The notes beneath the pieces were generated by a model. The model saw only the letters and a list, made by a program, of their open reading frames with translations. It ran no database searches and had not been told where the DNA came from. A program made the translations under genes and the position numbers. This document shows, piece after piece, positions 12,030 to 55,669 of a DNA stretch of 64,000 nucleotides. The stretch comes from a bacterium (GTDB lineage: Bacteria > Zhuqueibacterota > Zhuqueibacteria > Oceanimicrobiales > Oceanimicrobiaceae), in NCBI GenBank assembly GCA_046757025.1, contig JBHHXN010000011.1:1-64000 (forward strand), given 5' to 3'. Every line of letters starts with the position of its first letter. Positions within the stretch are counted from its first letter, which is position 1.

Positions 12030-14966
12030 TTATTTTGCGGCTGTTGCCGGACAAACCTCGGAAAATGCACAAAATTGACAGTGGAATGCGTTCGGATTCG
12101 GGGTGTAATCTCGGCAGCGAATGCCTTGAGCCGCCGCGTTTATTTTATCGGTTATTTTATTCAGCTTTTTTTCGGTAACCTGTGCGGTGCCCACAATTCC
12201 CGAATCCAGAAAATGCAGCTCCACAGCCCTAGGCAGTGTGCTCTGTGTATTTAAATACGCCAATGCGTAGAGGAAAAGTTGCAAGCTGTCGGCTGTACGT
12301 CTGTTCGCTTTGTCCTGCTCTCGGATTTCTGAAGATTTAAAATCCACGATATAGACTTCGCCATCGCGCTCATCCACCCGGTCCCAGCGGCCGATGATGC
12401 GGTTGTTTCCAAGAACAAAGCTGAATTCTTTTTCTACAAATGCCGGCTGATAGGGAGAAGCTTCCTGCTGCTGGTGAAATCGCGTAAGCGATTGCCGTCC
12501 GGCCTGCAGCCGCTCTTTTTCGTGTTCGCGCGTTAAAAAGCCTTCGCTGAACCAGTTTTGTTCAAATACTTTTATCAGCTCTTCGCAGCTCATGTCGCGG
12601 CCGCTCATTTTGCGGCGGTGGTATTCTTTTATGGCTTCGTGAATGGCGCGGCCGTAAACCACCGAATGGTGCGGTAAAATGGGCACCTTCAAAATATGAA
12701 CGTATTTGTATTTCAGCGGGCAGGTGTCGTAATCGTCGATTTGATAATAACTCAAATTGAGGATTTCGTTGTCCGACATCTGGCCAGGCTCCTTGGGCGA
12801 TTCCGTGATTTTGGGCCCATTACGTTCGATGGTTTCCAGAGGCGAACTTTTTATCAATTGGTCGTCGGCTTGCGGTTTTTCGAGGGCTTCCAGAATAAAC
12901 TGACTGATTTTGCGTGGTCGGGCGCCGCCATAGTCGCGGGCGCTGGTTAAGTAGAGTTCTTTTTGCGCCCGGGTCATGCCCACATAAAACAATCTTCTTT
13001 CCTCTTGCAAGTGAAAATCGCCTGTGGGTAAAACATCTTTGATCAATTCATCCGGCAATTCCAGGGTATCTTTTCGATGCCGGCTCGGAAACCTTTGTGC
13101 CACCAAACTGACCATGAAGACCACCGGAAACTCCAGACCTTTGGCTTTATGATAGGTGAGTATGTTGACCGCATCCTCATCACTGTCGGCTTCGGCTTGC
13201 GCCGGGTCGTCGCCTGCCTCGATGAGGATGTCGAGATATTTTATCAGTTCATGAATGCGGTCTTTGCTCGCGATCTCGGAATATCTTCTGATCAGCGTGA
13301 AAAACTTCGCTATATTTTGAATTTTTAAGTCGGACTCGATGGAGTCAACTGCAGTGAGCTGGTCTAAATATCCGCTATCTTTCAGGAAACGATACAGCAC
13401 CACATAGGGCGGTTCGCTGCGCGATAAATCCAGGTATTTTTCGAGGTCGCTCAAAAGCTTCTGCAACGTCGCTAAACTTTCCGGGCTGATTTCCTGCAGT
13501 TCTTGGTATTGATCAACATTTTTTAGAATGTAGTGCAGAGTCCTTTTGCTGCGATTTGCGACGTTCAGACACTGGGTAATATCCGACATGGGAAATTGAT
13601 AGATATCGGAAACGGCCAGATGGTATAAGCTGATATAATCTCTGAAATCGTTAACTGCCCTTAAAAATGAGATCAACAGCCGCACTTCTTCTCTTTGGTA
13701 CAAACCGCGATTACCCGTAAACCGAAAGGGAAGCCCCTCGTATTTCAAGCAGCGCAAAAACGGCTCAGCATGGTTGTTCGCGCGCACCAAGATGGCAAAA
13801 TCTTTGAAACGGTATTCACCTGCTTTGACTTTTTTCTGAATGATATTCGCCACGCCTTCGGTTTCGCTGGTGAGGGTATCAAAATGCAAATGTTCCACCG
13901 ACTTCCCGCCGGAAAAATGGGCTGTCAGCTTTTTGTTGATTTGATTTTTCACTTCCAGCCGATCGGGATTGTTATGCTGGATCAATTTGTAAGATGCGTC
14001 CAGAATTTCCTGCGACGATCGATAATTTTGCGTCAGTACCACCTGTTTGGCGTTGGGGTAATATTCGGTAAACGTGAGAATGTTGCTGATGGCGGCGCCG
14101 CGAAATTTGTAGATAGATTGATCGTCATCGGCCACCACTGTGATGTTTTGATGACCGCCGGCCAAAAGTCGCACCAACTGAAACTGAGCATAATTGGTGT
14201 CCTGAAATTCATCGATAAGAATGTGTTCATAGCGATTTTGAATTTGCTTTAATGCGTAGGGGTGTTCTCGCAGTAATTTTAGCACGTAATTGATTTGGTC
14301 GCCAAAATCCATTTTGCCCTGTTCGGCCAGTTTCTGTTGATATTGCACGTACGTTTGCGCCAGCTCCATTTGACGTCGGGCATTCTCGGCCAGCTCTTTA
14401 TTTTCCATATCCTGTTCGCTTTGTGTTTGCAATTGTTTGGCGTATTCCAAATAGGCCTCAGGTGTGATGTCTTCATCTTTTGCCCGACTGAATAACCGCA
14501 GAATCGCCGAAATAAAACTGTCGGGATTGCTGAGCGGGCGATAGTGCTGCAAAGGAAATTCGAACAGGCGTTCTTTAAAAAAAATGATCTGTTCGGCTTG
14601 AGATAAAACCTGGAAATTGTTTGTCAAGCCCAATTCAAAAGCAAATTCCCTGAGGATGCGGTCTCCAAAAGCATGAAAAGTTGAAATCCACACGGTGGAA
14701 AAACCGTACGGCACCAGTAAGTCTAGCCGTTCCTCCATTTCGCCAGCCGCCTTGTCGGTGAAAGTGAGCGCTAAAATTTTTTCCGGTGCGGCTTTTTTTG
14801 CCGTAATCAAGTAGGCGATTCGGTGAGTGATGACTTTGGTTTTGCCGGTTCCCGCGCCGGCAACGATCAGCAAAGGACCGGTGTCGTGCTGCACCGCTTC
14901 TAACTGAGCACAGTTCAAATTTTTGGTGATTTGATTTGAAGATAAATTGATTTCCATTTGTCGCAT
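12030..14966 (-). CDS. UvrD/PcrA-type helicase fused to C-terminal PD-(D/E)xK nuclease (AdnB-like)
   Basis: AGAGTGKT, IDEFQD, QSIYKFRGA, HKAKGLEF, EERRLFYVGMTRA; GRWDRV, IVDFKS, QLFLY; four Cys. Confidence 0.93.
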   Translation of the reverse strand: MRQMEINLSSNQITKNLNCAQLEAVQHDTGPLLIVAGAGTGKTKVITHRIAYLITAKKAAPEKILALTFTDKAAGEMEERLDLLVPYGFSTVWISTFHAFGDRILREFAFELGLTNNFQVLSQAEQIIFFKERLFEFPLQHYRPLSNPDSFISAILRLFSRAKDEDITPEAYLEYAKQLQTQSEQDMENKELAENARRQMELAQTYVQYQQKLAEQGKMDFGDQINYVLKLLREHPYALKQIQNRYEHILIDEFQDTNYAQFQLVRLLAGGHQNITVVADDDQSIYKFRGAAISNILTFTEYYPNAKQVVLTQNYRSSQEILDASYKLIQHNNPDRLEVKNQINKKLTAHFSGGKSVEHLHFDTLTSETEGVANIIQKKVKAGEYRFKDFAILVRANNHAEPFLRCLKYEGLPFRFTGNRGLYQREEVRLLISFLRAVNDFRDYISLYHLAVSDIYQFPMSDITQCLNVANRSKRTLHYILKNVDQYQELQEISPESLATLQKLLSDLEKYLDLSRSEPPYVVLYRFLKDSGYLDQLTAVDSIESDLKIQNIAKFFTLIRRYSEIASKDRIHELIKYLDILIEAGDDPAQAEADSDEDAVNILTYHKAKGLEFPVVFMVSLVAQRFPSRHRKDTLELPDELIKDVLPTGDFHLQEERRLFYVGMTRAQKELYLTSARDYGGARPRKISQFILEALEKPQADDQLIKSSPLETIERNGPKITESPKEPGQMSDNEILNLSYYQIDDYDTCPLKYKYVHILKVPILPHHSVVYGRAIHEAIKEYHRRKMSGRDMSCEELIKVFEQNWFSEGFLTREHEKERLQAGRQSLTRFHQQQEASPYQPAFVEKEFSFVLGNNRIIGRWDRVDERDGEVYIVDFKSSEIREQDKANRRTADSLQLFLYALAYLNTQSTLPRAVELHFLDSGIVGTAQVTEKKLNKITDKINAAAQGIRCRDYTPNPNAFHCQFCAFSEVCPATAAK

Positions 14967-46273: not shown

Positions 46274-46948
46274 ATGAGTGTTCAAAAAGCGAAACAAGCG
46301 GCTGCTGAAAAAGCGATCTCTTACATTAAAGACGGTATGATCATCGGATTGGGCACGGGCTCCACGGCTTACTTTGCGATTCAGAAACTGGGTAAGTTAG
46401 TCGCGCAAGGATTGACTGTGAAAGCGGTTCCGACCTCTAGTGCCACGGAAAGACTGGCGAGAGAACAAGCCATTCCGCTGCTGGATGAATTTGATCGCGT
46501 CGATGTCACCATCGACGGCGCCGATGAAGTCGATGTGTGCGGCAACCTGATAAAAGGCGGCGGGGGCGCTTTGACCAGAGAAAAATTGGTGGCCGCGGCC
46601 AGCGAGATGGAGATCATCATCGTGGACGAGTCGAAATTAGTACCGACGCTGGGCAATTTTCCTCTGCCGGTCGAAGTCCTGCCTTTCGGCTGGCCATTTG
46701 TGCAAAAACGGTTAAATGCCCTGGACTGCGAAAGCACGGTGCGAACGTGCGATGAGAAATTTTTTGTAACCGACAATCAAAATTATATCATCGATTGCGA
46801 ATTTGGAGTTATTTCGCATCCCTCCGAGCTGGCCTCTGAAATCAAATCCATTCCTGGCGTGGTGGAATGTGGATTATTTATCGAACTAACCGATCTAGTT
46901 ATCGTGGGTCGAGCAGACGGGAGTGCCGAAGAAAAATCTTTTCGATAA
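46274..46948 (+). CDS. rpiA: ribose-5-phosphate isomerase A
   Basis: GLGTGST, IDGADEVD, IKGGGGALTREK, LPVEV, PGVVECGLF; start moved to ATG 46274. Confidence 0.97.
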   Translation: MSVQKAKQAAAEKAISYIKDGMIIGLGTGSTAYFAIQKLGKLVAQGLTVKAVPTSSATERLAREQAIPLLDEFDRVDVTIDGADEVDVCGNLIKGGGGALTREKLVAAASEMEIIIVDESKLVPTLGNFPLPVEVLPFGWPFVQKRLNALDCESTVRTCDEKFFVTDNQNYIIDCEFGVISHPSELASEIKSIPGVVECGLFIELTDLVIVGRADGSAEEKSFR

Positions 46949-47062
46949 ATATAATGAATAATATTATCTTGCAGGGAACGGCTACAATCCGTTTTGTGTT
47001 TCCTCTAACATTGACATTTGAAAAAAACGCCTGGTGAGTGAGACTACATTTGCACAAAACAC

Positions 47063-48031
47063 TCAATCTTTTGGGATAGCGTATTTTTTCATTTTAAAGC
47101 GTAACGTTGCTTCCGGTATTCCCAGCAAACGGGCGGCTTTCACTTGATTGCCAGCGAATTTCACCAGCGCCTTTTTGATCAGGTAGGTTTCGACGTCAGA
47201 AATAACCCGTTTTAAATTCGAGACTTCTATGAAATCCAATGGATGGCGTTTGATCTCAAACGGCAGATAGTCGGTAGAGAGCTCGCCATTCGGCGACATC
47301 ATCACCAGGTTTTCAACACAGTTTTTTAATTCATGCGCATTTCCCCGCCAATCATATTCCAGAATGGATTCGAATATTTCAGCGGGCACGGCTGGAATTT
47401 CCACTTCGTTTTCTTCACAATATCTTTTCAGAAAATAGATGAACAGCTCCGGAATGTCCTGTTTGGTCTCTTTCAACGGCGGCACCGAAATGGACAAAGC
47501 GTTTAGAAGATAGTATAGATCTTTGCGAAATTTGCCCGTTTCAACGTCGTGCTCGATGTCCTGGTCTGTGGAAGAAATAATTCTCACTTCGAGCGGAATA
47601 ATTTCTGACCCTCCGATTCTGCGAAAACGCTTTTCACGGAAAACTTGCAACAATTCAAATTGAAAATCCGCATCCAGATCGCTGACATTTTTTAGGTAAA
47701 GAATTCCGCGATTCGCTTTCTCTAAGATACCGATGGTTCTCTGGATGGTGCCATCATTCTTTATTTCTTCGCCGTATAAATCTTGTTTATCCATGGTAAT
47801 CCCCAGCGCAGAACAATTGAGCTCCACAAAGGGGCGATTTTTTTTGGTACTCAAAGAATGGATGAGTTTCGCGATAAATTTTTTACCCGTTCCTGTGTCC
47901 CCCACGATTAAAATGTGGCTGGCCACTTTGGAGAATTTTTTTATCGCTCGTTTTATTTTTTTTGCTTCAGGACTGTTGCCAATAAAGGTTGGCTCCTGAA
48001 AAACTTTCCCCGCATTTTCATTCTCTCTCAT
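47063..48031 (-). CDS. sigma54-interaction-type AAA+/Fis-HTH regulator, degenerate, no input domain
   Basis: GDTGTGK, PFVELNC, FRKDLYY, WRGNAHEL, GNQVKAARLLGI; GAFTGA absent; Walker B reads LYLKNV. Confidence 0.88.
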   Translation of the reverse strand: MRENENAGKVFQEPTFIGNSPEAKKIKRAIKKFSKVASHILIVGDTGTGKKFIAKLIHSLSTKKNRPFVELNCSALGITMDKQDLYGEEIKNDGTIQRTIGILEKANRGILYLKNVSDLDADFQFELLQVFREKRFRRIGGSEIIPLEVRIISSTDQDIEHDVETGKFRKDLYYLLNALSISVPPLKETKQDIPELFIYFLKRYCEENEVEIPAVPAEIFESILEYDWRGNAHELKNCVENLVMMSPNGELSTDYLPFEIKRHPLDFIEVSNLKRVISDVETYLIKKALVKFAGNQVKAARLLGIPEATLRFKMKKYAIPKD

Positions 48032-48049
48032 TTTATGTATCCTTTTAGA

Positions 48050-49123
48050 TTAATTATGTTTAATGGAAATTAAATTGTCATCTTTGAGCCGTTTGTGATA
48101 CAAAGCCGACAGAAAATAAAATAATATGAGAACGCCAAACGCTATGACGACAAAATTCAGTTTAATAAACAGCGAGACTTCAAAATAGTTAATACAGAAG
48201 ACAAAAAATAGCGTTAAAAAGCCCATTGCATTTCGTCGTTGATGAAAATAGGCTTTCATAAAACTGATTACAGATTTTGAAACGCTTTTTTTCCTTTTGA
48301 TCGGTACGCCAAGAGCGTTTCCCGATATCACGATAGAATCGTAGAACTGTCCAAATGGTGAGTAGGCATAATTAAGTAATCTAATCATGGTGATCACAAA
48401 GAACGACAGCGTGACAACCAGTACGTACTGTGTAAAGGTGAAAATGGTGATGGCGTAAATATTGCCGATGAGGTTGGTGATATCCATGATAATCATGATG
48501 AAAAAGCAAACCATGATGGTATTGATGTGTTCTCCTATTGAGCGATCATATTTATACAAAATGACTCCATACAGTCCCAGAAAAAACAACGGCAGGAAAT
48601 CGGAGAATAAAATGCTTTTGTATAAATAAGCGTTATCGTGTTTTAAAATGTATTCTTTATCCATTAAAAACGGAAAAAAGTGCCACAAAAAAATTGGCAG
48701 AATTACAGCTAAACTCAGGCCATAAATGTATCCTGCATCGATTTTTCTAAAGAGATATTTTATACTGATGTAGATAATACAAAAAACAAAAAGAAAAGTT
48801 TGAATAATATTGAGGTACTCGTAGAAAAACCAGGCATGATAGTTATTCCCGATAAAATTATCTTCCCCGATAAAAAGCGCGGCAAAACTGAAGCTGTGAA
48901 ACAGCGCAAAGATGCTGATGTTTAAAAATATGAACTTATTATTTTTACTTTGTTTGAAAAGATAAACGCACTGAAGAAAAAGCAAAAAATAAATCGAGCA
49001 ATTGAGCCAGGTTAAAATGGGAACCTGTTGATGCGGTAGATTTGTAAGAATGATGAGTATTAAAACGAAGGACAACCAGACATTGATAACCCGGAAATGA
49101 ATATTGAAATTTTTGGAAAACAT
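48050..49123 (-). CDS. polytopic membrane protein (~10 TM), sensor-like, no catalytic domain
   Basis: 357-aa highly hydrophobic ORF in apparent operon. Confidence 0.8.
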   Translation of the reverse strand: MFSKNFNIHFRVINVWLSFVLILIILTNLPHQQVPILTWLNCSIYFLLFLQCVYLFKQSKNNKFIFLNISIFALFHSFSFAALFIGEDNFIGNNYHAWFFYEYLNIIQTFLFVFCIIYISIKYLFRKIDAGYIYGLSLAVILPIFLWHFFPFLMDKEYILKHDNAYLYKSILFSDFLPLFFLGLYGVILYKYDRSIGEHINTIMVCFFIMIIMDITNLIGNIYAITIFTFTQYVLVVTLSFFVITMIRLLNYAYSPFGQFYDSIVISGNALGVPIKRKKSVSKSVISFMKAYFHQRRNAMGFLTLFFVFCINYFEVSLFIKLNFVVIAFGVLILFYFLSALYHKRLKDDNLISIKHN

Positions 49124-49189
49124 CTTGACCCGAACAGTTAGAGTTGGTGAATTGAATTAGATTTACTGCAGATATCATTCTGCTTAGCA

Positions 49190-49465
49190 CTATTCTGTGC
49201 CTCCGTCCTTCTTGTCTTTGTCCCTGGGGGCTGGTTTTTTTAATGGCGCCGGTATCGGACTTCGAAAGCTTGCTTTTAAATTGAGATCAGAACTGACGGT
49301 ACCATCTTGAACCACGGTGGTGGAGGCTAATGCACTGGAACTGCTAATTCCAATTTTGCTTAAAACTTGTGTTACTTTGTTCTGTTTATCGATGGATGCG
49401 AATACGAACACAAAAAGAACGTAAACTAAGACGAGCATTACGACGGCGAACAGTTTTTTCTTCAT
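49190..49465 (-). CDS. small exported peptide / membrane-anchored precursor
   Basis: AAGGAGG RBS; MKKK plus hydrophobic helix; Ser-rich middle; Pro/Lys/Asp-rich tail. Confidence 0.8.
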   Translation of the reverse strand: MKKKLFAVVMLVLVYVLFVFVFASIDKQNKVTQVLSKIGISSSSALASTTVVQDGTVSSDLNLKASFRSPIPAPLKKPAPRDKDKKDGGTE

Positions 49466-49512
49466 TGTGACCCTCCTTCATTTTCATGAATTAAACTGTT
49501 CGGGTCGCTTAA

Positions 49513-49541
49513 AATATATTACTATTCTTTCAAATTGTCAA
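49513..49541 (-). promoter_or_regulatory. sigma70-type promoter of peptide operon
   Basis: TTGACA-17 nt-TATATT on minus strand. Confidence 0.7.
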
Positions 49542-49729
49542 GCAAAAACGTATGGAATTGCGAACATTCTGAAATTATTAATAATTTTACGCAAAAACTT
49601 ACGTATTGGAGGGGCGATGCTTCGAATTAAAATGTTCTAATTCGCCAAATGTGACTTGCGTATGAAGAAAATACTAAAGTTTTTTGGATTTGTCAATAAT
49701 TATTTTAGGAAATTAGCAATTTGTTCTGA

Positions 49730-51334
49730 TCAATTGCGCAAATCCGCCATTGACAACAAAACATGGGCATTGGGAAAATATTTGATGGCTTCTTTGAGTT
49801 GTTTATCTCGCGCAACATTTACTTTGAAGCGGGCGTCGCTGCCCCAGAGCAGGTAGGCCATTTCTCGTTTCAGTAAAAATTTGATATCGCTTTTGTCCAC
49901 ACCGAAATCGATTAGGGAAAAATAGGGGTCCGTGCTTTTAACATATTTCATAAAATCCCAGTAGAGTTTCTTGGTTACCTGAAAATTTTCGATAAAATTC
50001 TCTTTCGCCCTCTTCAATTCTGGATGTATGCGGATAAAATCTTTCGCAAAAGCATAAAAAAATCTTTTCTCTGAAAAGTAAAGCTCCCGTAAATTATCGG
50101 AAAGCACGTTTTCCTGGTTGTCTATCCAGATGTCGGGGGTAATGCCGCCACCGCCATAAACCGTGCGGCCGGATAAGGTTTTAAATGCCGGTTTGGCGAT
50201 GATATTGTTTTTTTGGTTACGCTTCTGATCATCGTATGCCGCCCGGTAATATTCATCTTTGGTTTTTTCAAAATAGTCCCTCTGGATAGCTCTTCCACTT
50301 GGCGTGTAATATCTGGCGGTGGTGATGAGCAGCGCGGAACCATCATGAAAGCGGTATTGACTTTGCACCAGCCCTTTGCCGAAGCTGGTTTTCCCGATGA
50401 TCAAGCCGCGGTCTAAATCTTGAATGGCGCCGGCAACGATTTCGGCTGCGCTGGCTGAGCCGTGGTCGATCAGGACCACCAGGGGTACAAGGCGATGCGT
50501 GGTCTCGGAGGTGGAGTAATATTCTTGAAAGCTGCTGGGCAGCCGGCCCTTTGTGGTTAAAATTTTGTGTCCCCCGGGAATAAACTTGTCGGTTACATCG
50601 ATGGCGGTATTCAAATAGCCTCCGCTGTTGCCCCGCAAATCCAGAATGAGTTTTTTCATGCCTTTCGCTTCCAATTTCGTCAAGGCTTTTTCCAGTTCGG
50701 TAGAAGTTTTACTCGTAAATCGTTCGATTTTTACATAGCCGATATCGTTTTGAATTAAATGGCACTGGGTCAGACTTTTCAGTAGAATTTTCTCACGGAT
50801 GAGCTGCTTTCTCTTGGGTGCGCTCCAACGCTCGCTTTCAACCAATAAATTGATGGGCGTACCGGCGGGGCCCATCATTTTTTTTAGGAAATCTTCTTTT
50901 TTGATTCCGATCACCGAAGTGTCGTTGATTTCGATGATTTTGTCGCCTCGTTGTATGCCATTTTTGGAAGCCGGTCCGGATTCGATAACTTTCATCACCG
51001 TCACTTTGTCCTGGATGATTTCAAAACTGATGCCGATGCCGGTATAACCTTCAAAACTCTGGTTCCACATTTTAAAATCGTCCGCTGGCAGGTAGTTGGT
51101 GTGTGGGTCTAATTTTGAAACGACGCCTTTGATGGCGTTCTCGATGAGCTCATCGGCATCGGTTTCCTCGACGTAAGCCCGCTGGATGGTGTCCAGTATG
51201 GAGGTGAAGAGCTTGACTTTGGTGTACAGATTTTCAGAATACGTGATGAATGCGGCGGTGGTTTCTTGACCATAAAAATACGCAAATGTGAAACCAAAAA
51301 GGGCGAGGGCAGTTACAAATGTTTTCCTTAACAT
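49730..51334 (-). CDS. S41A carboxy-terminal processing protease
   Basis: LDPHT, GIGI PDZ, DLRGNSGG, SASAAEI, SFGKGLVQ, YYTPSGR, GGGGITPD; ATG 51334 has AGGAGA RBS. Confidence 0.95.
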   Translation of the reverse strand: MLRKTFVTALALFGFTFAYFYGQETTAAFITYSENLYTKVKLFTSILDTIQRAYVEETDADELIENAIKGVVSKLDPHTNYLPADDFKMWNQSFEGYTGIGISFEIIQDKVTVMKVIESGPASKNGIQRGDKIIEINDTSVIGIKKEDFLKKMMGPAGTPINLLVESERWSAPKRKQLIREKILLKSLTQCHLIQNDIGYVKIERFTSKTSTELEKALTKLEAKGMKKLILDLRGNSGGYLNTAIDVTDKFIPGGHKILTTKGRLPSSFQEYYSTSETTHRLVPLVVLIDHGSASAAEIVAGAIQDLDRGLIIGKTSFGKGLVQSQYRFHDGSALLITTARYYTPSGRAIQRDYFEKTKDEYYRAAYDDQKRNQKNNIIAKPAFKTLSGRTVYGGGGITPDIWIDNQENVLSDNLRELYFSEKRFFYAFAKDFIRIHPELKRAKENFIENFQVTKKLYWDFMKYVKSTDPYFSLIDFGVDKSDIKFLLKREMAYLLWGSDARFKVNVARDKQLKEAIKYFPNAHVLLSMADLRN

Positions 51335-51729
51335 CGGTGTTATCTCCTTATCTTCTGGTGTCCGGAGGCGTTGAATACACGCATGCTTGAATAAGATAAC
51401 CATTCTATTCATTCTATTCTGGCACGCGGGCGCAGTGATTTCACGTTCTCGATTGGACGTAATTCTATGTTTCGTAAATTGCCACAACGACTTTCTTCTC
51501 AAAAATATAAGAACAAAAATCGTTTTTTAATTATTCGGGAATTTTAACAGCCTAAAATGGTTTTCTAAATTAGATGTGCATTAAAATATGAAAATGATTC
51601 TTCGAGATGGCGGCATTCCTATTCACCAATACCTGAAGGATAAGATTTTTGCGTACAACTTTGTTAAAATATATCGGGTAGTTGTAAAAAAAATTAACTT
51701 GACTAACTGTTATATTTTGTTAAATTGAA

Positions 51730-51862
51730 GAAAGCCTGGCGGCAGTCGATAGAGAGTTAAAGATCAACCAAAAACGTGTTTCTTCGAACCAAAGCACCCC
51801 CTTATTCTTCGGGTTCGAGGATAAAAGCGGCCGTGGAGTTAGTCGATTTGCCATTCTCAGAA
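51730..51862 (+). ncRNA. candidate 6S-like RNA
   Basis: Closing stem GGCAGTCGA/TCGATTTGCC plus CTG/CAG; A-rich bubble; inner stem CTTCGAACC/GGTTCGAGG; TTGACT at 51699 upstream. Confidence 0.45.
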
Positions 51863-52149
51863 ACGTAGCACAATGTATGGCGAAGGTGCTGCTGAGTTTC
51901 TATTAAACCGAGAGTTTGTATGAATTCAACAATAAGTGGGGAATATTTTATGGTTCTGCATGTAAAATCTACGGTCGTGATTTCGAAAAATTGCCAAAAT
52001 TCCGCCATTTGTTTTGATGCGCGGCAAGTGAACTTTTACGCCAATAATGAAATATAATAAAAAGCATGGGCATATGGAAGCCCTGAAAGATGGCAGTGGC
52101 AGGATTTGTGTCTTTCAATACCCTTTTTGCTATTTTGCCATAGAAAAAA

Positions 52150-52422
52150 GTAACTGTTCAGCCTGTCATTCTGGAAGAATCTTTTTTGAGCCTGAGAATT
52201 ATTTAGTGATTGACCGAAAACGAGTGTCTTCATGCTGAGCGGAGTCGAAACATGACGTAAAAACAACAGCTTATCACCCTTCGACGCAGTTTATCCTGAG
52301 CTTGTCGAAGGGCTCAGGGTGAAGAAATATGGACTTTTCGGTCAATCACTATTTAGTCAAACAAATAAGAGCTAAAAACAAACAAGATCCCTACGGCATG
52401 ACAAAACAGGCTGAACAGTTAC
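52150..52422. mobile_element. MITE family D, hosting nested family A copy
   Basis: 16-bp perfect TIR GTAACTGTTCAGCCTG; flanks AGAAAAAA/ACAAAAAA (possible 8-bp TSD). Confidence 0.8.
52205..52350. mobile_element. MITE family A, copy 2
   Basis: Same 16-bp TIR as 5873-5995; TSD ATTT; 23 bp longer. Confidence 0.9.
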
Positions 52423-52678
52423 ACAAAAAATAAAAAAGTGTTTTAATTATAAGGAGATTTAAAGCACAATTATTGCATACCGATATAAACATTCCAGTTA
52501 CCTTTCACTGCTGGAATGTTCAAATTTTTCACGGATTGATTTTTCAATAGGAAGCCGCAACACTCAAAAGTATCCACAGATGTTGAATTCATTTTGTTAA
52601 CCTGCCATGAAAATCTGACAGAAGATGGGTTAAATGGATTAATCATCAATTGTAAACACCCAATTAGCGAGTTGTAAT

Positions 52679-55669
52679 ATGAAATCGTCAGAGAAATTTA
52701 TTCTGTCTTTTTGCCTTTTTCTTGTCTTAGGAAGCTATTCAAACGCGTTTAGTCAATATTACTTTGGGCGAAATAAAATTCAGTATGACGATTTCGAGTG
52801 GAAAATTTTAAAGACCGAACACTTTGATGTGTATTTTTATCCGGAAATGACCGAGCTGGCCGAGATCGGTGCCGCCTTTGCCGAAAAAGCCTATCATCGC
52901 CTGGAAGCCAAATTAAATCACAACATCAAAGGCCGAATCCCCCTCATCTTTTATTCCAATCACTCACATTTTCAGCAGACCAACACCATCCCGAGCTTCA
53001 TTCCTGAAGGCGTGGGCGGATTTTTCGAATTCATCAAAGGCCGGGTGGTCATCCCATCCGACGGATCGATTCATAAATTCAAGCACGTGATCAACCACGA
53101 ACTGGTACACGTATTTACCCGCAGCAAGATGAATCGCGTGCTCAAAGATCACCGCAAAACCACACTTGCTGGTTTGCCGCTCTGGTTTACGGAGGGAATA
53201 GCTGAATATTGGTCCGAAGGCTGGGATTCGCAAGCGGATATGATCCTGCGCGACGCCGTCCTCAGCGGGCATCTGGTGCCGTTGAGCAAAATGGATTATA
53301 TCTATGGCACATTTTTAATGTACAAAGAAGGCCAGGCTATTTGTAAATACATTGCGGAAAATTTTGGCGAGGAAAAGCTGCTGCAGTTGATCGAAAACAT
53401 CTGGAAGGAGAACTATTTTTCGGATGTTATGAAATTAACCATCGGCTTGAATTATAAGGAATTTGATGAAAAGTGGATTTATGATCTTAAAAAGAAAAAC
53501 TATCCTTTGTTAGAAGAAGGCGATTCCCCCAAAATGGTGACGAAAGTCGTCACCCGTGAAGGCATCAACACCAAACCCACCTGCTTTAAACAGGACGGGC
53601 AGGAGTGGGCGGTATTCGTGTCGAATCGTGTGGGCTACTCGAATATTTATAAGAAGCCATTGAAAAGTCAGAACGGCCAAACAGAAGTGGTTGTGAAAGG
53701 GGAACGCACTTCGGATTTTGAATCGTTCCATTTGCTCAGCAGCAAAATAAGCGTGAATCAGAAAGGCCAGCTGGCATTTGTTTCCAAAAGCGGCGCCAGC
53801 GACGTGATTCATGTTTTCGATATTGCAAATAAAACCAAAATCAAAAAGTTCAAATTTGAGGGTCTGGTTTCTCTGTCCTCGCCAAACTGGTCACCGGTCG
53901 GCGATAAAATCGTGTTTTCAGGTATCAGTTTCGCGGGCTTGAGCGACCTTTACGTGGTGGAAGCAGCCACCGGAAAATTGCAGCGCCTGACCAACGATTT
54001 TTATGATGATCGCGACCCGGCCTGGGCACCTGATGGCAAAGCCATCGCTTTTAGTTCGGACCGTTCCTACTACGGAAAACATGGCTTCATGAATTTGTTT
54101 TTGTATAATCTGGAAAACGGTAGCATTCAATATTTGACCGTGGGCAAACAAAATGATTATTCGCCGGCGTGGTCACCGGACGGCAAAAAGATCGCTTTTG
54201 CTTCGGACCGGGAAGGCGCCTTTAATATTTGGATGATTAAAAATAATCTTCAGGAGCCTGAAATATTGCCCATCTCAGAATCATTCAAAGCGGCTTTAGT
54301 ACAAGAAACCCATCCTCAAAACGTGATCTGGGGCGACGGCAAAAATGGCAGCAACGGCAGCAGCCTGTTTAATTGGGATGAACCAGAATATGATTTTCCT
54401 TCAGCCATCGAAACCGCGGATCAAATTAAAAAGATCACGAACTTCACCACGGGCGCATTCGATCCGGTTTGGCTGAATGAAGATCGAATGCTGTTCACGG
54501 CCTTTGAAAATTTTTCCTTTCAAATTCGGGAAATTGACAATCTGACTGAAAAATTTGAAGAAGCGCCGGCCACAGAAAACGATTCGCTCATGGTGAAGAG
54601 AAATAACTGGACCGCCGACAAACTGGCGGGTGAAATCGAGTCGCAGACTTTGAAATACAAAAGAAAGTTCAATCTCGATATCGCGCAGAGCGCCATTTCT
54701 CAGGACCCGATTATTGGCGTGTCCGGCGGCGCACAAATTGCCATGAGCGACATGCTGGGTAATCAACAATATTATTTCCTCATCTACAATAACGCGCAAA
54801 CGCGCGGTGAGTTCTTCAAAAGCTGGAACGTCGCGATTACCCGCGTGGAACTGTCCAAACGCATCAATTACGCCATTGGCGGATACCACATCACCGGCCG
54901 ATTCTTTGACCAGGTTGACAGTTTTTTCGATCAAAGACGGCTTGGTGGATTTGTGGCCGCGAGCTACCCGTTTTCGGTGTTCAGCCGCCTGGAGGGCAGC
55001 ATCAATCTGCGCAAAGAAAGCCGCGTGTACGATACCCGCGGGCAGACGGTGGACGGCATCGTGGTTTCCAATGCGGTCTCTTATGTCAAAGATAACTCGC
55101 TCTGGGGCTTTACCGGCCCCATCGACGGCGAGCGCTTCAAATTTACCCTCGGCCACACGGTTGATGTGCAGCACAACGACGTGAATTTTTACACCATCAT
55201 TCTGGATTATCGCAAATATTTTCGCCTGGGCCGGCGGGTTACCTATGCCACGCGCTTGATGACGCGCATCAACCAGGGCAAGGAAGCTTTTCGATATTTT
55301 ATGGGCGGCAGCTGGGACCTGCGGCTGCATCCGAGATGGCGCATTTGGGGCCGCAAGCTGTTTTTGATCAACAATGAGCTGCGCTTTCCATTTATCGATC
55401 GCTTTTTGCTGGGCTTCCCGTTTGGCGGTCTCGGATTCAATGCCATTCGCGGGGCCACCTTTCTGGATTTCGGTCAGGCCTGGGACCGCGACTATCAATT
55501 CAATGAAATCCTGGGCAGCCTGGGCTTCGGTTTGAGATTGCGCATCGGTGGTTTTCTGGTGCTGCGCTATGAAATCGGCCGCAAATTCAAAATTCGCGAT
55601 TTCAACAGCCCTAGTTTGCATTTTGAAAAAGGACTGAAAAAAGCCTTCTGGTTTGGATTCGATTTTTAA
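52679..55669 (+). CDS. peptidase MA-like + PD40 propeller + BamA/Omp85-type barrel fusion
   Basis: FGRNKIQY, HELVH, PLWFTEGIAE, WSPDG repeats, MGGSWDLR, NNELRFP, FLDFGQAW, terminal FWFGFDF. Confidence 0.87.
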   Translation: MKSSEKFILSFCLFLVLGSYSNAFSQYYFGRNKIQYDDFEWKILKTEHFDVYFYPEMTELAEIGAAFAEKAYHRLEAKLNHNIKGRIPLIFYSNHSHFQQTNTIPSFIPEGVGGFFEFIKGRVVIPSDGSIHKFKHVINHELVHVFTRSKMNRVLKDHRKTTLAGLPLWFTEGIAEYWSEGWDSQADMILRDAVLSGHLVPLSKMDYIYGTFLMYKEGQAICKYIAENFGEEKLLQLIENIWKENYFSDVMKLTIGLNYKEFDEKWIYDLKKKNYPLLEEGDSPKMVTKVVTREGINTKPTCFKQDGQEWAVFVSNRVGYSNIYKKPLKSQNGQTEVVVKGERTSDFESFHLLSSKISVNQKGQLAFVSKSGASDVIHVFDIANKTKIKKFKFEGLVSLSSPNWSPVGDKIVFSGISFAGLSDLYVVEAATGKLQRLTNDFYDDRDPAWAPDGKAIAFSSDRSYYGKHGFMNLFLYNLENGSIQYLTVGKQNDYSPAWSPDGKKIAFASDREGAFNIWMIKNNLQEPEILPISESFKAALVQETHPQNVIWGDGKNGSNGSSLFNWDEPEYDFPSAIETADQIKKITNFTTGAFDPVWLNEDRMLFTAFENFSFQIREIDNLTEKFEEAPATENDSLMVKRNNWTADKLAGEIESQTLKYKRKFNLDIAQSAISQDPIIGVSGGAQIAMSDMLGNQQYYFLIYNNAQTRGEFFKSWNVAITRVELSKRINYAIGGYHITGRFFDQVDSFFDQRRLGGFVAASYPFSVFSRLEGSINLRKESRVYDTRGQTVDGIVVSNAVSYVKDNSLWGFTGPIDGERFKFTLGHTVDVQHNDVNFYTIILDYRKYFRLGRRVTYATRLMTRINQGKEAFRYFMGGSWDLRLHPRWRIWGRKLFLINNELRFPFIDRFLLGFPFGGLGFNAIRGATFLDFGQAWDRDYQFNEILGSLGFGLRLRIGGFLVLRYEIGRKFKIRDFNSPSLHFEKGLKKAFWFGFDF

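Follow-up and report, generated by a model that had tools for sequence, protein, structure and literature searches.

The 64,000-nucleotide stretch of DNA analyzed here (the window; positions 1 to 64,000 of contig JBHHXN010000011.1) carries on its minus strand a putative operon, in which an open reading frame (ORF) for a 91-aa peptide precedes genes for an orphan membrane protein and for an AAA+/HTH protein resembling sigma-54 activators. Three short sequence elements, designated A, B, and C, lie at the predicted 5′ end of the transcript, at the start of the peptide gene, and at the start of the membrane protein gene, respectively. The features are as follows, in the order of transcription:

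49730..51334, minus strand, S41 C-terminal protease gene, upstream of the promoter-like site
49549..49563, minus strand, operator-like near-palindrome, just 5′ of the −35 box and distinct from A, B, and C
49513..49541, minus strand, sigma-70-type promoter-like site (TTGACA-17-TATATT, 11/12 match)
~49506, minus strand, predicted +1, placed from TTGACA-17-TATATT (predicted transcription start site)
49494..49506, minus strand, element A, the predicted 5′-end switch strand, with C (13 bp) or B as its partner
49486..49490, minus strand, A′ extension, local-hairpin partner of the peptide start codon region
49472..49479, minus strand, Shine-Dalgarno (SD) sequence of the peptide gene, assigned by sequence and lying in the local-hairpin loop (paired probability 0.11)
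49442..49465, minus strand, element B, peptide codons 1 to 8, partner of A/A′ in the nascent hairpin
49190..49465, minus strand, 91-aa peptide ORF with a hydrophobic, signal-like N-terminal segment and a Pro-rich C-terminal motif
49127..49139, minus strand, element C, in the membrane-gene initiation region, perfect complement of A
48050..49123, minus strand, 357-aa orphan membrane protein ORF, ATG at 49123
47063..48031, minus strand, receiver-less sigma-54-activator-like AAA+/HTH gene

The promoter-like site ends 6 nt ahead of element A. A reading of this DNA made earlier from its letters (the sequence-only reading) had placed the transcript start near 49506, and the predicted start agrees; computationally, it does not fall downstream of the 13-nt element A, since the promoter lies upstream of it. 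Among 50 homologous loci scanned, 26 gave strong promoter matches, and in 24 of these the −10 box is likewise 5 to 7 nt ahead of A. The locus scan revealed neither a terminator-like site between the peptide and membrane protein genes nor a plus-strand consensus promoter-like site aimed into A, B, or C. Upstream, the S41 protease, which could possibly process the peptide precursor, is encoded in only 13/84 homologous loci within the DNA fetched. Downstream, the AAA+/HTH gene follows the membrane protein gene in 69/75 loci with enough DNA; its product has no receiver domain and, read off the translation, lacks the GAFTGA motif and the Walker B acidic pair. The near-palindrome beside the −35 box recurs in 15/50 loci, at −52 to −59, and its strict promoter-adjacent pattern occurs in its own genome only at 49549-49563 and at one other site, making it a candidate autoregulatory site of the AAA+/HTH protein. 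Half-sites resembling it can be seen by eye near 49600 and 49660. A second promoter-like site at 49668-49696 (minus strand) is followed at 49624-49637 (minus strand) by 14 nt that directly repeat, at 93% identity, A's 3′ half together with the adjoining flank, and the two may possibly be a degenerate, duplicated promoter-leader.

The membrane protein matches no Pfam or NCBIfam family, and a Pfam search of 37 family members and 10 distant homologues returned no real family. Neither it nor the peptide has a paralogue in its own genome. Its structural model (pLDDT 83.7) aligns over residues ~28 to 261 to GPCR-type seven-transmembrane (7TM) bundles, at best with Z 14.2 and an rmsd of 3.6 over 210 aligned residues; many GPCRs score Z 11 to 14, a range in which helical bundles can reach ~13 by their common arrangement. 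Foldseek gave no match at E ≤ 0.001, although its top rows were GPCRs, and Atlas feature matches, all below 0.9, serve as leads only. Judging from the model, the protein is likely a receptor with a GPCR-like 7TM fold. The 91-aa ORF is likely a signaling-peptide precursor: a hydrophobic N-terminus is present in all called peptides (it was also a filter criterion), and the family keeps the Pro-rich motif, which is often repeated, up to seven times in homologues. In seven loci (L032-L036, L074, and L107), the Pro-rich core stands in 3 to 7 tandem copies, like multicopy peptide precursors. A modeled complex of peptide residues 55 to 91 with the membrane protein scored 0.63, compared with 0.01 for the best of three controls; the mark it passed is reached by 116/157 solved and 2/215 mismatched pairs and is only rough with the alignments used. 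At least 76% of contacts are common to the runs, with a partner pLDDT of at least 58, and the invariant P70 of the peptide contacts the invariant N41 of the membrane protein. Solved GPCR-peptide complexes may have contributed to this score, and peptide binding is a prediction of the model. The labels “peptide” and “receptor” in the sequence-only reading thus gain support from structural models, and we use “receptor gene” below in this predicted sense. A distant subfamily (P0074, P0080, P0081, P0088, and related proteins) is ~380 aa long, with an insertion after residue ~168; the source name of one member is Bacteroidota bacterium. The cluster of one homologue bears the source name candidate division KSB1 bacterium.

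Elements A (49506-49494) and C (49139-49127) form a 13-nt inverted repeat of 100% identity, 354 nt apart, with C ending 3 nt ahead of the receptor ATG, exactly the complementarity pointed out earlier from the letters. The 13-mer has exactly two occurrences in the 5.96-Mb genome, both at this locus. When a 408-nt region was folded, A:C was the closing helix of the structure (z = −2.62; 0/100 shuffles were equally stable). Using the best helix within the same fixed sequence intervals for 780 gene pairs of the genome, taken from crude ORF calls, A:C was the joint best at −21.8 kcal/mol; the median of the control pairs was −7.4 kcal/mol, and 30/780 reached −13 kcal/mol. Opening the receptor start at the focal locus was predicted to cost 16.9 kcal/mol with A and 4.7 kcal/mol without it. 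The one other pair of the 780 with equal strength, at G000:C93 ~13900-14410 (minus strand), has a 12-bp leader-to-next-start helix around a thioredoxin-like ORF, which is followed by a flavoprotein-like gene, as read from the translations.

A scan of genome contigs with a single protein yielded one partial locus. A membrane-protein profile gave matches in 74/167 genomes of the phylum and to 232 representatives at E ≤ 0.001. Removing 27 duplicates and 4 loci without the gene N-terminus from 115 loci left 84, and an upstream peptide ORF was present in 71. At a threshold of −13 kcal/mol or better, the A:C helix was found in 50/71 peptide-bearing loci (33 genera, 8 families), a count that, like the others below, overstates independence because the loci are related. 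The helices are 11 to 23 bp long. With 30 leader shuffles per locus, 45/50 A:C loci beat all shuffles and 0/21 negatives did. Considering only loci with an intact 5′ region, 20/70 lack A:C at the threshold (L017, a negative, is cut off before A). All eight f7 and all five f12 loci are negative. L028 and L082 have a bulged true A:C (z −7.6 and −6.3), their best unbroken helix being a different one; for 10 bulged loci, the helix start was placed manually, and membrane starts were adjusted in L012 and L037. A held-out metagenome scan produced 20 loci, of which 17 had the gene start and 14 a complete peptide ORF; A:C was present in 14/14, several of these being close relatives of one another.

The conservation includes compensatory change. 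Across 26 aligned loci of the 50, 96.7% of A:C cells pair, with double changes at 8/13 pairs; the covariation was equaled in 0/500 shuffles, and slid registers pair at 19 to 48%. On a protein tree of 39 loci (core columns 1 to 11; of the 50, 10 were set aside for replaced or bulged sequence, and 1 was absent from the tree), we counted 22 compensatory, 13 G-U, 3 A-C, and 8 other events. On the transcribed strand, G-U events outnumber A-C events (13:3, P = 0.011; with the extension 23:9, P = 0.010). In f9, f14, and part of f11 (f11/g36), the letters are largely replaced and the pairing is kept, with bulges. A lack of conserved complementarity in orthologs, which would have spoken against the earlier proposal, was therefore not what the alignments gave. 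A cognate-versus-swap test of A:C (1163/1225 pairs) is partly circular and was given no weight. Covariation and conservation in the 50 loci and the 14 held-out loci argue that A:C is not chance, and the G-U bias argues that it acts as RNA rather than as a DNA repeat. Thus, A:C is very probably a functional RNA helix. The letters of the A/C core are strongly conserved across families, beyond the need of pairing, which suggests that a protein also reads them.

The position of the helix points to its target. The C end of the helix lies at −18 to +18 of the receptor ATG (within −12 to 0 in 36/47 loci), and the distance from the peptide stop to C is 8 to 112 nt (at least 20 nt in 48/50); from the narrow offset to the ATG against the wide stop spacing, C follows the ATG and not the stop. 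Overlap of C with the start codon occurs in one f11 clade; in L044, L079, L084, L085, L087, and L089, C extends over the start codon and the codons next to it without loss of the core letters. A makes the receptor start at least 3 kcal/mol costlier to open in 38/48 loci. A 4-nt SD match is found at 6/50 receptor starts, compared with 50/50 peptide starts, for which SD was a ranking criterion. It is probable, if less firmly so than the helix itself, that A:C represses receptor translation, and in the best explanation this repression is the phylum-wide core of the system. Six f6 loci (L021, L022, L024, L029, L030, and L088) have receptor genes with neither an upstream peptide ORF nor the C motif and are orphan receptors without the switch. 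L070 and L076 have the C motif before the membrane gene and no peptide ORF past the filter, possibly owing to longer spacing or an insertion; L101, L102, and L095 show weak, bulged leader-to-start complementarity under the threshold and are possibly decayed or divergent switches.

The second structure involves the peptide start. The minimum free energy (MFE) fold of the nascent 5′ region is a local hairpin of 4 + 10 + 5 bp (−18.6 kcal/mol), in which the AUG is paired with a probability of 0.87. The sequence-only reading held that this pairing buries the peptide start; the AUG and codons 4 to 8 are indeed buried, but the SD sits in the loop. At the focal locus, 12/13 nucleotides of A are common to both folds, and the overlap of A:B and A:C is at least 7 nt in 26/28 loci. 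Support for A:B comes from frozen synonymous codons: in 23 f1/f2 peptides, Lys2 is AAG in 22/22, Leu5 is CTG in 23/23, and Phe6 is TTC in 23/23, whereas the later codons of the same peptides vary (CTG for 29/161 Leu, TTC for 43/110 Phe). In the held-out loci, CTG is used in 13/13 and TTC in 11/13; the TTT of the other 2/13 keeps a G-U pair. An equivalent hairpin in other letters occurs in f6 and in f9/f14, in the latter over the start codon itself. The cognate leader-start A:B ranked in the best 10% in 32/32 loci of f1/f2, f6, and f9/f14 and was favored in 0/18 loci of f11, f21, and f24. In the f1 register, the covariation test of A:B found no double-sided changes and did not beat column shuffles; compared with synonymous recoding, A:B gave P = 0.065 at the focal locus and P ≤ 0.1 in 23/50 loci. 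A:B is real but weaker than A:C, and it is restricted by lineage, three families (f11, f21, and f24) being without it. The A:B trap is thus an add-on of some lineages, the focal one included.

In the full transcript, the predicted cost of opening the peptide start (−15 to +15) falls from 16.4 to 9.6 kcal/mol at the focal locus, and the start becomes easier to open by at least 2 kcal/mol in 27/30 computed loci of f1/f2, f6, and f9/f14. Overall, this gain was seen in 29/48 loci, with only 2/18 in f11, f21, and f24. Over the narrower interval of −14 to +6, the focal peptide start is not easier after the flip (5.7 to 7.5 kcal/mol), and a gain was seen in 19/48.

The two folds are unequal in stability. 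A:C is more stable than A:B by 11.6 kcal/mol at this locus and is the more stable in 27/28 loci computed, the constrained two-state comparison covering 28 loci and its unconstrained versions 48/50 (two were too long). In stepwise folding, A:B forms from a transcript of 60 nt and drops out of the MFE fold at lengths of 216 to 260 nt; A:C is best from 376 nt. The direct-path (findpath) barrier from A:B to A:C is ~11 kcal/mol, a rough bound that carries no time scale. The proposal that mutually exclusive folds toggle translation of peptide versus receptor therefore stands in part: the pairing is exclusive and shares the nucleotides of A, but the two states are unbalanced, and with A:C dominant in 27/28 loci, refolding in one direction is a better fit than reversible toggling.

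We favor the reading that, in the focal lineage, the leader is a reciprocal, one-way timed switch, to which we assign a probability of roughly 0.58 on the predicted folds and comparative sequence data. A, at the predicted 5′ end of the mRNA, would first fold onto the peptide start, a stage that would briefly leave the receptor-like gene open. A would then refold onto the receptor start, shutting the receptor gene and freeing the peptide gene. The 5′ GACCC, only partly paired by B (CC is free), may serve as the toehold for C, and ribosome loading at the peptide start would also free A and hasten the flip. Each mRNA would in this way give few receptors and many peptide precursors. More tentatively, and at somewhat less than even odds, this would amount to reciprocal timing without any protein, each mRNA yielding a GPCR-like receptor and only afterward the peptide ligand of that receptor, within an undescribed signaling system of peptide, 7TM receptor, and degenerate AAA+ protein spread across an uncultured phylum.

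The strongest competitor, though an unlikely one, is a static clamp, in which A:C simply keeps the receptor start closed, with no timed switch, and A:B damps peptide translation or shields the 5′ end. A:C is indeed the widespread, covarying, and thermodynamically dominant part, and f11, f21, and f24 do without A:B. As a variant, A:C would pair the ends of a stable peptide mRNA left by processing or 3′ trimming, giving a high peptide-to-receptor ratio; helices of this length (11 to 23 bp) and with a conserved core might be recognized by a nuclease or another protein. Against this, it is the receptor ATG that C tracks, reaching into coding sequence in f11, rather than the peptide stop, and A:B uses the very nucleotides of A:C (at least 7 nt in 26/28 loci) and recurs with other letters in f9/f14 and f6. 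Chance complementarity has a negligible probability: the one pair of 780 that equals A:C in energy speaks for it, and it is refuted for A:C by the covariation and by the recurrence in the 50 and the 14 held-out loci.

A reversible toggle triggered by a factor, in which a signal would make a protein, an antisense RNA, or a ribosome stalled on the Pro-rich tail hold the mRNA in one state, would account for the strongly conserved core letters and for a peptide that combines a signal-like N-terminus with a Pro-rich tail, as arrest peptides do. It is nonetheless improbable, clearly more so than the clamp. The stop-to-C spacing (8 to 112 nt, at least 20 nt in 48/50) varies too much to let a stalled ribosome melt C; the Pro-rich motif is repeated in tandem and modeled inside the receptor pocket; no plus-strand promoter-like site was seen opposite C or the downstream side of A; and no Rfam aptamer was found. 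Very unlikely, finally, is that A, B, and C are DNA sites, either operators bound by the operon's own regulator or the borders of a DNA segment that inverts. Core conservation, the overlap of A with the predicted +1, and a DNA-binding regulator in the operon fit such sites, but DNA repeats should be symmetric, whereas G-U is favored over A-C (13:3). Moreover, pairing survives whole-sequence replacement, with bulges (f9, f14, and f11/g36), a separate near-palindrome already stands beside the −35 box, and all 71 called peptide ORFs read in the sense direction (the search covered that strand only). Contigs from four DNA runs of one study showed no inversion joints or strand changes, but such contigs drop rare variants, and a rare inversion could escape them.

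Several known arrangements resemble the locus in part. Arrest peptides of the SecM, MifM, and RAPP types are encoded by small upstream ORFs with a localization signal and a Pro-rich tail, located before Sec/YidC genes. The locus shares a small upstream ORF with an N-terminal localization segment and a Pro-rich tail before a membrane-related gene; it differs in placing the inhibitory strand in the 5′ leader rather than at the end of the upstream ORF, and in its variable spacing. An arrest-peptide system was rejected because the stop-to-C distance of 8 to 112 nt puts the stall site outside constant ribosome reach of the helix and because the downstream gene is 7TM-like, with no Sec/YidC family match. 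The a1/a2 inverted repeats of retrons are placed as A and C are, one where the transcript begins and the other directly ahead of the next start codon, but the region enclosed here is a conserved ORF, and no reverse transcriptase was found after the second repeat. In peptide quorum sensing of the Agr/Com type, an exported peptide binds a membrane receptor histidine kinase that works with a receiver-domain regulator; no kinase or receiver domain was found at the locus or in family members.

The closest parallel is the 5′ untranslated region of the maturation gene of phage MS2. By the cited account, its 5′ strand is trapped in a metastable hairpin that opens a translation window, and a long-distance helix then closes the ribosome-binding site of a low-copy protein, made at 1:180 (PMC4615214). 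On the points given there, the present leader is computationally similar, with a local hairpin first (in the focal lineage; not in f11, f21, and f24) and a long-distance helix later. It differs in lying in a chromosomal operon, in a helix that spans a whole intervening ORF (354 nt), and in a trap that is the start of another gene, so that two genes would be reciprocally controlled. By analogy, then, the element may work like the MS2 leader, made reciprocal across two genes, without being a member of that family. In the type I toxin mRNAs aapA3/IsoA3 and hok/Sok, nascent metastable hairpins over the start of a small ORF are replaced by a helix of the 5′ end with a distal segment; the small ORF stays silent under this last helix until the 3′ end is processed, and the systems require an antisense RNA, as the cited work describes (PMC6733600). 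Unlike in that description, the last helix here would, by prediction, open the small ORF while closing the gene after it, and a type I toxin mRNA was rejected because the helix does not block the small-ORF start (predicted 16.4 to 9.6 kcal/mol). In Bacillus subtilis, distal pairing against the ribosome-binding site over several hundred nucleotides is reported to inhibit initiation and promote decay in vivo, the pairing strands being downstream anti-SD sequences that are selected against (PMC12697547). Compared with the cases in that report, the strand here is upstream, conserved, covarying, and aimed at a second gene.

Rfam 15 gave two chance matches far under the gathering threshold at 46900-52700 and 0 matches in 13 homologous loci. 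No description of the element was found in the literature searched, which covered neither journals behind subscription nor the motif supplements of large RNA screens, where one could still stand.

In bacterial operons, the coupling of neighboring genes is usually positive, and most known cases of timed RNA refolding come from RNA phages and toxin mRNAs. Here, a conserved, covarying helix reaches over a whole gene to the next start, and a predicted competing trap lies on the first. If the favored reading is true, translation of the upstream gene goes with repression, not activation, of the downstream one, and the element would be a natural inverse-coupling device that sets both the ratio and the order of ligand and receptor. 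It is small (~400 nt), comes in 50 natural variants, some from trap-free lineages, and can be tested by reporters and probing. The locus also marks a predicted orphan pair of peptide and GPCR-like receptor in bacteria.
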